In this document: one piece after another, positions 14,848 through 26,173 of the stretch
Layout of the letters: every line of letters begins with the position of its first letter
Numbering within the stretch: the stretch's first letter is position 1
Source of the DNA: a virus
Reading direction: 5' to 3' (one strand)
DNA length: 64,000 nt
IMG/VR virus record: IMGVR_UViG_3300027749_000046
Notes under the pieces: generated by a model
Told to the model about the DNA's origin: nothing
Databases searched by the model: none
The model's input: the letters and a program-made list of their open reading frames with translations, nothing else
Translations under genes and position numbers: made by a program

Positions 14848-14939
14848 TGGTAGGCGTGGAGGGATTCGAACCCCCTCGAGAACGGTAATCTGCCGCTGAA
14901 AGGCTTATAAGGCCTCCCTGTGTACCAACACCCACGCCT
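14848..14939 (-). tRNA. Atypical tRNA with UAU anticodon, long variable arm and D-tetraloop (allo-tRNA-like)
   Basis: Acceptor AGGCGTGG/CCACGCCT-A-CCA; D arm GTGT-TGGT-ACAC; anticodon loop CT-TAT-AA; V arm AGCGG/CCGTT; T loop TTCGAAT. Confidence 0.8.
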
Positions 14940-14944
14940 ATGAT

Positions 14945-15020
14945 TGGCGATCACCAAGGGACTCGAACCCCTAACCTAGAGAGTAGAAATCTCTTGCTCT
15001 TCCAGTTGAGCTAGGTGACC
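14945..15020 (-). tRNA. tRNA-Arg(UCU)
   Basis: Canonical cloverleaf, AGAGA-TT-TCT-AC-TCTCT anticodon arm, encoded CCA. Confidence 0.93.
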
Positions 15021-15027
15021 AATTAAA

Positions 15028-15243
15028 TTATTTTTTGTCAATAAATGCTTTTAACTCTTCTGCCAATAAAATAATATCCGATTTGCTTGGATATTTCAAA
15101 GCATTCATAGCAGCAATTCGATTTGGGGAATTTGGTTCGGTTGTATCTCTGATACGTTCCATGGCCGCAAAATATTCACCAGTTAACTGGCTTTGCGCAT
15201 AATGAAGAAGATCAAAACGAATTTCAAATGGTGTTTTTGTCAT
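15028..15243 (-). CDS. Phage hypothetical protein (KTPFEIR family-like)
   Basis: ORF with GGAG RBS before MTKTPFEIRFDLL. Confidence 0.7.
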   Translation of the reverse strand: MTKTPFEIRFDLLHYAQSQLTGEYFAAMERIRDTTEPNSPNRIAAMNALKYPSKSDIILLAEELKAFIDKK

Positions 15244-15289
15244 AGTAGTCTCCTGTGTCTGTGTTTGTGTAGTGAGTCCGTTATTTGAT

Positions 15290-15585
15290 AGGGTGGAACT
15301 CATACCCCAGACTTATCTTTTAAGCAGCAATTTTCATTGCGGAATAATTAATATTGTCATTATGTGCTTTTTTTGCAGATAACTTATTTATGCAGTCGTC
15401 TCGGTCCGCTTTTAACACACCTGTCGATCCTATTTCGCCCCCATCAAAGATACATCGGGTGTTCGGAGAAACCTATTACACCATATTTGTTCCGACTATG
15501 GAGACCGATGTATCCATGGTGGAGGCGGCGGGTACCGCCCCCGCGTCCAGTATGTCTATTCTGCTTTCGTCATCAACAACAGCAT
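15290..15585 (-). ncRNA. ssrA: Circularly permuted two-piece tmRNA (outer ends approximate)
   Basis: Acceptor piece ends GGACGCGGGGGCGGTACCCGCCGCCTCCACCA at 15517; coding piece starts GGGGGCGAAATAGGATCGAC at 15442; G3-U70 pair; tag frame AKKAHNDNINYSAMKIAA-stop. Confidence 0.9.
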
Positions 15586-15589
15586 ATAT

Positions 15590-15620
15590 TATTTATACCA
15601 CGTTTTAGATTATTTGTCAA
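15590..15620 (-). promoter_or_regulatory. Combined sigma70 (TTGACA) and late (TATAAATA) promoter for the tmRNA/tRNA cluster
   Basis: TTGACA at 15620-15615 and TATAAATA at 15597-15590. Confidence 0.7.
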
Positions 15621-16041
15621 TAACTAAATCAGGTCCTACTACATTAATTTTAACTAGTCGAGTAATGTTGAGATCTTTGCCGCCCCAGCGAGTGTACTCA
15701 CGACCGCCGTCGACAAATACGGAATTGTCTGGACTGCCGCGATAGTCGTGACGGAATCGACTGTAGATCACGTCACCGTTGTCAGCTACTATGCCATCGA
15801 ACGGCTCGGTTGCAGAGTCGGCTTTGCAGATCATCACATCTTTATCATAGACATACATGCCGAAGTAGTTAGACATCTCAGGAGGTGGGTGCGGTTGGTA
15901 GAACACGGCGGCTGGTTGATAGCTCCACCCGCCGTCTTTCGTCTTGAGACTGGAGTCACAGACATACTTGGCGCGATACGTCTCCTCGATCTTCTCGATA
16001 GACTCTTTAGGAAAGACGATAGACTCATTTAGGATCTTCAT
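15610..16041 (-). CDS. Hypothetical protein
   Basis: ORF in the operon; YSR-RHDY and VDGGR-Y motifs. Confidence 0.7.
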   Translation of the reverse strand: MKILNESIVFPKESIEKIEETYRAKYVCDSSLKTKDGGWSYQPAAVFYQPHPPPEMSNYFGMYVYDKDVMICKADSATEPFDGIVADNGDVIYSRFRHDYRGSPDNSVFVDGGREYTRWGGKDLNITRLVKINVVGPDLVIDK

Positions 16042-17269: not shown

Positions 17270-18232
17270 TCATGCCGCGTCGGCGAACTCAATCGCCGTC
17301 TCAAGCGCCTTGATCTTGAGGTTCTTGTTTCCGCCGTACCAAGCTGACTGGAGACGGGTGTCGCGCGAGCGACCGAGTGTGTGGTCGGTCATGTACGTGA
17401 CGGTGTTGAACGCCTGCCACCAGGTGCCCTCACCCATGTCAGCGCCAGGCTGTGTGTACATGTAGATGAGTGCGTCGGCTGCATTGCGCGACATCTCTTT
17501 CTTGGTGTCTTCCTTAGGGCGGTTGAGCGGGAAGATCGACTTGAAGTAGTCGACGATGTTGTTACCATTGTAGCGCTTGGTGCCGAGGTACTCAGCCATC
17601 TCCTTGTACTTAGCCATCTTCTCGTGTGCTACGCCAAGCATAACCTTGACGCTCTCTGGATCGAACTTCTTGCGATGAGAGATCTTCACCATGTTCTGAA
17701 CGCGAGCGTTAAGCGAGGCAGTAAGCGTGTTGTTGCATACCACGCGGATAGGCGAGAAGCGTACGTCGGTAGCGAAGCCAAAGCGGTGGAAGTTAGTAAA
17801 GAGGAGATAAGAGTCGACGACGTCCTTGCCACCAAAGAGCTCAAATGACTCCTTGACTTTTGCAAGACCCCAGACAATCTGGCCGTCGCGCAGGGAGCCG
17901 GCTGTTTCCATGGACATGTCACCTGCCATAACGAAGTCGTTGAAGAACTCAAACGCCTCTTCGTTCTGGATTGGATTCCAATCTTCAGAAACGACGTCCA
18001 GTACCGAGTCATCGAGAGAGCGAACGAGTGCCGACTGTCCGATAGCGATCTTCTTGCCGTTGATCTCCGCGTAGGCGGGAATCTTCTCGACGGTCCAGTC
18101 GAGGCCAGCAGCCTCGAGCATCTGGACTGGTGTTAAGTCTGCTGGTACCTTCGTACCGAGACCATGCCAAGGCGTCTCACCCGTGTAAGCCATCTGAGCC
18201 TTGCCGTTAATTTCTTCAATCATGTGTGCCAT
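17270..18232 (-). CDS. DUF932/DUF945 (phage/plasmid TIGR03299-like) protein
   Basis: MAY-GETPWHGLG, AGLDW-V, QNEEAF-FF, ETAGSL, RVVCNNTL motifs. Confidence 0.88.
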   Translation of the reverse strand: MAHMIEEINGKAQMAYTGETPWHGLGTKVPADLTPVQMLEAAGLDWTVEKIPAYAEINGKKIAIGQSALVRSLDDSVLDVVSEDWNPIQNEEAFEFFNDFVMAGDMSMETAGSLRDGQIVWGLAKVKESFELFGGKDVVDSYLLFTNFHRFGFATDVRFSPIRVVCNNTLTASLNARVQNMVKISHRKKFDPESVKVMLGVAHEKMAKYKEMAEYLGTKRYNGNNIVDYFKSIFPLNRPKEDTKKEMSRNAADALIYMYTQPGADMGEGTWWQAFNTVTYMTDHTLGRSRDTRLQSAWYGGNKNLKIKALETAIEFADAA

Positions 18233-26097: not shown

Positions 26098-26173
26098 TGG
26101 TGGACCCGGCAGGACTCGAACCTGCAACCAGACCGTTATGAGCGGCCGGCTCTAACCATTGAGCTACAGGTCC
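26098..26173 (-). tRNA. tRNA with CAU anticodon, Ile2-type (lysidine) sequence
   Basis: GGACCTG acceptor, GGTTAGAGC D arm, GCCG-CTCATAA-CGGT anticodon arm, encoded CCA; resembles bacterial Ile2 rather than Met. Confidence 0.85.

Follow-up and report, generated by a model that had tools for sequence, protein, structure and literature searches.

AUA stands alone among the sense codons: nearly all bacteria can read it only with a tRNA that the essential enzyme TilS has modified. The DNA analyzed here, a 64,000-nucleotide stretch from a virus (IMG/VR record IMGVR_UViG_3300027749_000046; hereafter the window), encodes on its minus strand, at positions 14848-14939, a 92-nt RNA with the anticodon UAU and an unusual body, and the question raised by this locus is what such a tRNA does for a phage. 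The initial annotation had described it as an allo-tRNA-like RNA with a 4-bp D stem closed by a UGGU tetraloop, a long variable arm, discriminator A and encoded CCA, and had suggested TilS-independent AUA decoding, deliberate mistranslation or a decoy function. The gene is real, and the anticodon and all of these parts were found in its sequence. It was called as tRNA-Ile(tat) by ARAGORN, and its MFE fold was a cloverleaf of -37.9 kcal/mol (z = -2.9 compared to shuffles). With a covariance model built from 100 members of its homolog family it scored 109.2 bits, compared to 56-110 bits for members and 35 bits or less for ordinary tRNAs, one tRNA-Leu(UAA) at 50.6 bits excepted. The feature is far beyond chance. 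That the tRNA is non-canonical was borne out by its compact D arm, by a second hairpin and by the Rfam scan, in which the gene had no match to RF00005 at the gathering threshold. In E-value mode only sub-threshold matches to tRNA-Sec and mascRNA were obtained at the site, and the best, to tRNA-Sec, reached 38.2 bits, below the gathering score of 47.

The gene is phage-encoded, as had been stated. It is flanked by gp33, gp59 and gp32, which by sequence place the window in a T4-like phage, and the nearest DNA matches of the window were the Sinorhizobium phages phiM12 and phiN3 and cyanomyoviruses. A canonical tRNA-Arg(UCU) (14945-15020, minus strand; ARAGORN, Rfam 62.4 bits) lies 5 nt upstream of the tRNA(UAU) gene. 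A putative sigma-70-like promoter (15071-15099, minus strand; TTGAAA, 17-nt spacer, TATTAT) matched the consensus at 10 of 12 positions approximately 50 nt upstream of the tRNA-Arg gene, and the two tRNAs are probably co-transcribed. A permuted (two-piece, alpha-type) tmRNA was found just upstream of both tRNAs (15229-15624, minus strand; Rfam alpha_tmRNA 94.4 bits), with the tag AKKAHNDNINYSAMKIAA. Permuted tmRNAs were also found on related viral contigs (L008:12606-12988, L026:10991-11331, L033:10055-10437 and L122:11238-11611), with a different tag, ANDNFA...LALAA, and approximately 0.5-1.2 kb from their tRNA(UAU). A 320-aa protein encoded near the tRNA/tmRNA cluster (17270-18232, minus strand) gave a strong DUF932 match (E 5e-43).

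The window also contains a canonical tRNA(CAU) at 26098-26173 (minus strand), detected by ARAGORN, which called it tRNA-Met(cat), and by Rfam. Its best full-length E. coli matches, at 80% identity, were PGAP-annotated tRNA-Ile genes. It has G1-C72, and its anticodon stem is without GGG/CCC, so that the Ile2 type assigned to it by the initial annotation is plausible. On these sequence features it is probably a lysidine-dependent Ile2-type tRNA and a second AUA decoder, and for this codon the phage probably has two decoders, one that needs TilS and one that does not. The further argument that the CAU tRNA makes a separate role likely for the UAU tRNA is weak; two AUA decoders fit a phage in which AUA accounts for a third of the Ile codons.

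The window copy can be drawn with an 8-bp acceptor stem and a 4-bp T stem, as had been proposed alongside a 7/5 alternative; its MFE fold likewise has the 8-bp acceptor. In a gap-free alignment of 100 distinct 92-nt homologs, 99.1% of the cells were standard pairs in the 7/5 cloverleaf, with change on both sides at 21 of 28 pairs, and the covariation score of this fold was 0.630, compared to 0.212 when shuffled and 0.145 or less with partners slid; to judge from this alignment the structure is under purifying selection. The pair 65:81 was present in 100 of 100 sequences (GC 43, CG 39, UA 14, AU 3, UG 1), compared to only 10 of 100 homologs with a standard 8:81 pair. Covariation thus establishes 7/5, not 8/4, as the conserved fold of the family; 8/4 can be drawn for the window copy only because its bases happen to be G8, G65 and C81. 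Since the homologs conserve 7/5, G8 is a single linker nucleotide that separates the D stem from the acceptor stem, whereas the first description had the two in direct contact. Covariation among homologs had been set beforehand as a check, with a standard 7/5 fold or decay counting against the proposal. The homologs do fold as 7/5, but the fold is otherwise far from standard and no decay was seen in the family.

In the following, positions are counted along the RNA (window coordinate = 14940 minus RNA position), all parts lying on the minus strand. The 5' strand of the acceptor stem (positions 1-7, AGGCGUG; 14933-14939) pairs with positions 82-88 (14852-14858); all seven pairs covary, and 99.6% of cells are paired. 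It is followed by the single linker nucleotide G8 (14932), with no equivalent of position 9; the 148 members listed have A (86), G (57) or U (5) as the linker. The compact D arm (14920-14931) consists of a 4-bp stem, GUGU/ACAC, in which 4 of 4 pairs covary and 100% of cells are paired, and the tetraloop UGGU, which is found in 95 of the 148 members listed, again on a 4-bp stem. The anticodon arm (14898-14918) has a 7-nt loop, CUUAUAA, and a stem with 96.9% of cells paired and both-sided change at four pairs; this stem is lengthened, as had been noticed, but to 7 bp in the window copy rather than 6. The anticodon UAU (14907-14909), which reads AUA, is supported by ARAGORN, the sequence and the alignment, in which U33, U34, A35, U36 and A37 are invariant. 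In the position of the variable arm there is a second hairpin (14881-14897), supported by covariation, with a 5-bp stem, AGCGG/CCGUU, and a 7-nt loop, CAGAUUA, the centre of which is a GAU (14888-14890) that is conserved in homologs. A 5-nt connector, CUCGA (14876-14880), in which C60 and U61 are invariant and G63 and A64 at least 90% conserved, leads to the T arm (14859-14875), with a 5-bp stem that includes 65:81 and the loop UUCGAAU. The discriminator A73 and the encoded CCA (14848-14851) complete the gene; A73 occurs in 148 and the CCA in 121 of the 148 members listed.

The family as a whole shares this plan: a 7-bp acceptor stem, a 1-nt linker, a 4-bp D stem with a D loop of 3-5 nt (mostly 4 nt) and 1 nt after it, a 6-7-bp anticodon stem with the 7-nt loop Y32, U33, UAU, A37, N38 (N38 mostly A), the second hairpin, the connector C-U-Y-G-A, a 5-bp T stem, a normal T loop and A73. 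The third base of the D loop and the third base of the T loop were G:C in 137 and A:U in 3, and never mixed, among the 148 members listed, which is the behaviour expected of the elbow pair G19:C56. The 7/5 branch, the T loop U-U-C-R-A, the GG of the D loop meeting the T loop, U33 and R37 are canonical; the single linker nucleotide, the 4-bp D stem with its tetraloop, the 7-bp anticodon stem and the second hairpin are not. In tRNA-Sec a long D stem stands in for missing core layers. In the phage tRNA the two extra pairs of the anticodon stem may do the same for the core layers that disappeared with the compact D loop, and the length from anticodon to elbow would thereby stay near normal.

A 19-nt exact search with the 5' half against viral contigs gave 70 loci with 35 distinct sequences, and 70 of 70 loci carried UAU; a pattern over the anticodon loop and extra arm gave at least 119 loci, and a pattern over the D arm of the second subtype at least 120. 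After a structural filter the family comprised at least 148 distinct members at 243 or more loci, and UAU was found in every member retrieved by the 5'-half search or the D-arm pattern alone. Members were mostly on viral contigs, often within tRNA arrays, and fell into three subtypes: one with the D stem GUGU/ACAC (the window type), one with the D stem GACU/AGUC and encoded CCA, and a cyanophage-like one without encoded CCA. When the window copy was searched by blastn in 50,697 phage records, T-arm matches alone were obtained; a query of the second subtype against phage records identified two cultured phages. Synechococcus phage S-SRM01 carries the cyanophage-like subtype without CCA, where the gene is unannotated, and in the Sinorhizobium jumbo phage Phosso a member of 93 nt is annotated as tRNA-Ile(tat). 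In one genome per species of 185,579 prokaryote species, a strict pattern matched only 11 loci, 9 of them true members, and all 11 were on metagenome or draft-assembly contigs. One member is on the chromosome of a Roseovarius MAG, with an integrase fragment upstream of it. A full-length, unannotated member with 91.7 bits was found on plasmid pC of Cereibacter sphaeroides 2.4.1 (L273:2972-3063, corresponding to NZ_CP030275.1 70083-70174), between hypothetical genes and an AAA ATPase gene and with a nucleotidyltransferase gene nearby. ARAGORN made no call for several true members, for example at L003, L026, L190 and L273. A search of the literature on phage tRNA-Ile with a long arm found no paper on a phage family of UAU tRNAs, and the family is apparently both large and undescribed.

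Two other phage RNAs were compared with the family. The 91-nt "tRNA-OTHER" (pseudo) of phiM12 (L195:46296-46386, corresponding to phiM12 96296-96386) adjoins a tRNA-Cys and has a good acceptor stem and T arm and an odd middle; at 22.8 bits it was ruled out as a member. The same compact scaffold with another anticodon was seen in one case among approximately 2,000 phage tRNAs (L187:5157-5229). This 73-nt tRNA has a 1-nt linker, a D tetraloop, a 7-bp anticodon stem, A73 and the anticodon CAU, with a variable region of 3 nt and no extra hairpin, and a UAU member is present on the same contig; as a single case it is suggestive.

By codon usage and genomic context the best-supported reading is TilS-independent decoding of AUA as isoleucine, one of the roles first suggested, and the tRNA is probably a working phage elongator. 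It would read AUA directly by its UAU anticodon, without host TilS, and together with the adjacent tRNA-Arg(UCU) it would supply AUA and AGA. We infer from the sequence data that it is expressed, charged with isoleucine by the host IleRS and used by the ribosome. In 60 loci scanned, tRNA(UAU) was part of phage tRNA arrays, with 20-36 genes in those that also hold canonical tRNA-Ile(GAU), CAU tRNAs (one to three per array) and ordinary tRNAs for Ser, Leu and Tyr; in phages with two tRNAs in reach, these were only tRNA(UAU) and tRNA-Arg(UCU). AUA makes up 35% of the Ile codons in the window (22 per 1000, or 2.2% of all codons) and AGA 34% of the Arg codons, compared to 7% and 8%, respectively, in the first 100 kb of phiM12, which is without tRNA(UAU). 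The use of both codons in the window is thus approximately fourfold that of phiM12, and family-bearing contigs have 16-25% AUA. The meaning of the codon was examined at 114 AUA codons of window ORFs aligned to phiM12 homologs. AUA sites faced I in 42%, V in 14% and L in 10%, with no serine signal; I, V and L amounted to 41, 20 and 14% at AUU sites and 37, 16 and 18% at AUC sites, respectively, compared to L 45% and I 9% at CUA sites. In these alignments AUA sites are indistinguishable from AUU and AUC sites and unlike CUA sites, which marks them as Ile-type.

The arrays contained other tRNAs of unusual form. Extra hairpins in the variable region, mostly a 3-bp stem with a tetraloop, occurred in Thr-UGU, Asn-GUU, Cys-GCA and Pro-AGG tRNAs (L003:9398-9484, L078:3824-3906, L107:2309-2391, L108:4162-4247, L107:2902-2987 and L137:1850-1947), which is unusual for these isotypes. 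ARAGORN also reported a CUA tRNA ("Pyl") and a 70-nt UCA tRNA ("SeC") in phage arrays (L107:3910-3984 and L122:6825-6894, respectively), possible stop-codon suppressors. phiM12 encodes a Thg1-type tRNA-His guanylyltransferase (L194:55-837), a further sign of tRNA identity being tailored in this phage group.

The elements known to govern isoleucine charging fit this reading in part. E. coli tRNA-Ile has the D-loop determinants G16, U20 and U21; these are impossible in a 4-nt D loop, which counts against the isoleucine reading. The bacterial Ile identity set includes A73, A35, U36, A37 and A38 (PMC9976931 Table 1), and the family matches it with A73 in all of the 148 members listed, invariant A35, U36 and A37 and mostly A38. 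In acceptor-stem likeness the co-resident tRNA-Leu came closest (7.3-7.8 of 15 positions, compared to 6.2 for tRNA-Ile(GAU), a small margin), and direct alignment with co-resident tRNA-Leu gave generic similarity only and no specific kinship. The UAU anticodon itself is charged poorly by E. coli IleRS, the responsible Trp residue of IleRS being conserved in TilS-bearing species, and E. coli ribosomes let a UAU tRNA read AUG as well (PMC3575796). In a TilS-bearing host, a plain UAU tRNA would therefore deliver isoleucine inefficiently and with errors, so that the phage tRNA(UAU) needs some compensation to work in an ordinary host. It is also not strictly needed, given the probable Ile2-type tRNA(CAU) in the window.

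A non-decoding role, in which the tRNA-like RNA would be a decoy for host tRNA-cleaving defence, a regulator or an element of mobile DNA, is unlikely. A non-decoding or mobile-DNA role was proposed by Mukai et al. for most soil allo-tRNA(UAU), six of which were inactive in E. coli when converted to CUA suppressors (PMC5389517). The copies on the Cereibacter plasmid, with its nucleotidyltransferase and AAA ATPase neighbours, and beside the Roseovarius MAG integrase would suit such a role, as would the second probable AUA tRNA in the window. However, a full elbow, an invariant A73, a mostly encoded CCA and a canonical anticodon loop with U33 and A37 have all been kept, the tRNA is paired with tRNA-Arg(UCU) in minimal tRNA sets, and presence of the family tracks high AUA usage. 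Moreover, in the 60 loci scanned the usual neighbours were tRNAs, and no toxin gene or nuclease was consistently linked, which speaks against the decoy that had been considered.

Missense incorporation, in which the long arm and A73 would make the tRNA a substrate of LeuRS (or SerRS) and AUA would be read as Leu or Ser, is improbable. Bacterial LeuRS depends on a large D loop, which the compact D arm does not have, and bacterial tRNA-Ser typically carries G73, which was found in none of the 148 members listed. The shape is class II-like and A73 is a LeuRS determinant (PMC9976931); the acceptor stem is closest to tRNA-Leu among the co-resident tRNAs, and one tRNA-Leu(UAA) approached the family model. 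There are also precedents in the nematode nev-tRNA-Ile(UAU), which is reported to be leucylated in vitro (PMC4300185), and in the Ser-charged allo-tRNAs. Against these points, similarity to co-resident tRNA-Leu is only generic, and the arrays already contain normal Leu and Ser tRNAs. AUA sites are of the Ile type, with L at 10% and no serine signal, compared to L 45% at CUA sites, and since 2.2% of all codons would be affected, insertion of another residue at AUA (35% of Ile codons) would be a proteome-wide burden. The deliberate mistranslation suggested at the outset is disfavoured on both grounds.

That the RNA is an allo-tRNA in the sense of Mukai et al. (2017), its acceptor having 8 bp and its T stem 4 bp, is very improbable: the G8-C81 pair of the window copy, the 8-bp acceptor of its MFE fold, the best Rfam match to tRNA-Sec (38.2 bits), which was the route of the first allo-tRNA discovery, and UAU as the commonest allo-tRNA anticodon (PMC5389517) are outweighed by 8:81 in 10 of 100 homologs compared to 65:81 in all of them with five pair types, an invariant A73 where most allo-tRNAs have G73 or U73, a D stem of 4 bp that is not long, and a setting in phage tRNA arrays and not in soil toxin-antitoxin or transposon loci.

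The label "allo-tRNA-like" is accordingly not supported, and the likeness behind it can be specified. The published allo-tRNA(UAU) come from soil and sediment, lie beside toxin-antitoxin or transposon genes and show stem-destabilising changes (Mukai et al. 2017, Nucleic Acids Res 45:2776, PMC5389517). They share with the phage family the UAU anticodon, a long extra arm, a D tetraloop and a lengthened anticodon stem, and both groups score best against the tRNA-Sec model without being tRNA-Sec and are missed by standard tRNA models. In contrast, the defining 12-bp branch of allo-tRNAs is split 8/4 or 9/3 (PMC5389517) and that of the phage family 7/5; allo-tRNAs mostly have G73 or U73 (Ser identity) and a long tRNA-Sec-like D stem, whereas the phage family has A73 and a 4-bp D stem; and allo-tRNA(UAU) occur in soil acidobacterial loci, whereas the phage family occurs, without decay, in tRNA arrays of AUA-rich phages. 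Because covariation gives 7/5, the family is not allo-tRNA by the defining feature of that group. Some of the allo-tRNA(UAU) sequences of Mukai et al. may nevertheless be family members, the two being set apart here by the published description. Bacterial tRNA-Sec (RF01852) is also the best Rfam match and shares the D-arm tetraloop, the longer anticodon stem and the long extra arm, but has UCA, an 8/5 branch, a 6-bp D stem and scores of at least 47 bits, compared to UAU, 7/5, 4 bp and 38.2 bits for the phage tRNA.

Functionally closest to the family are the TilS-independent tRNA-Ile(UAU) of class I that occur in Mycoplasma mobile and a small number of other bacteria (Taniguchi et al. 2013, PMC3575796). 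In the M. mobile tRNA and in a suppressor tRNA-Ile(UAU) of B. subtilis (PMC3919564), as in the phage tRNA, an encoded UAU and not a lysidine-modified CAU reads AUA. Both are ordinary 76-77-nt class I cloverleafs, unlike the phage tRNA body, and in M. mobile an adapted IleRS (Arg865) and an adapted ribosome are needed, whereas the phage tRNA must work in an unadapted host. The nematode nev-tRNA-Ile(UAU) (Hamashima et al. 2012, PMC3333845; PMC4300185) resembles it in having UAU and a class-II-like long arm; nev-tRNAs are eukaryotic, derived from tRNA-Leu and reported to be Leu-charged in vitro, whereas AUA in the phage is Ile-type and the arm carries a GAU loop.

GAU is the anticodon of the major tRNA-Ile. 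The loop of the second hairpin has the consensus Y-R-G-A-Y-N-N and is CAGAUUA in 102 of the 148 members listed; its G and A never vary and its U occurs in 144 of these 148, which places GAU at the three central positions of a 7-nt loop. The stem is 4-5 bp long, in a region of 21-22 nt between anticodon and T arm, and covaries at two pairs. Among the members listed, the pair equivalent to 29:41 was C:G in 147 of 148, the equivalent of 30:40 was GC in 92, AU in 41, CG in 8 and UA in 7, and that of 31:39 was CG in 118, GC in 25 and UG in 5. Two of the retrieval patterns fixed AGC, GA and GUUCU, so that these hairpin counts are biased; the GAU loop and the C:G pair also hold in the two subsets that were retrieved with no constraint on the hairpin region. 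The hairpin keeps C29-G41, G34, A35, U36 and A38, five of the six Ile identity elements of the anticodon branch (PMC9976931 Table 1). Its loop has A and not U at 33, mostly U at 37 and mostly A at 38, and without U33 and A37 it should not decode. A GAU-type arm loop was found in 0 of 311 other long tRNAs from the same loci, and the long-armed phage Thr, Asn, Cys and Pro tRNAs had no spare anticodon in the arm, only short tetraloop hairpins. In a comparison that took in 28 other isoacceptor classes, the hairpin stem was nearest to the anticodon stem of co-resident tRNA-Ile(GAU), at 4.26 of 10 positions, compared to 3.30 for the next class.

These features raise the possibility, a tentative one, that the second hairpin imitates the anticodon arm of the major tRNA-Ile without decoding and serves as a handle for host IleRS, which is unadapted and poor at accepting U34. 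Against it, IleRS contacts the anticodon elsewhere than at the variable-arm position, and with the hairpin stacked under the D stem instead, the anticodon would lie approximately three layers too close to the elbow. If the mimic is real, one arm of the tRNA (the GAU hairpin) would carry its charging identity and another (the UAU arm) would decode. The conserved GAU hairpin is in any case potentially important.

As the family is missed by the Rfam tRNA model and partly by ARAGORN, the AUA-decoding capacity of phages is under-annotated. With copies on the plasmid of Cereibacter sphaeroides 2.4.1 and in two cultured phages, the question is open to laboratory tests. The problem of UAU charging and AUG misreading has apparently been met in a large phage family by means of a redesigned tRNA body, which is of interest for the rules of tRNA identity, for the escape of phages from dependence on host enzymes and, as a natural scaffold with two anticodon-like arms, for tRNA engineering.
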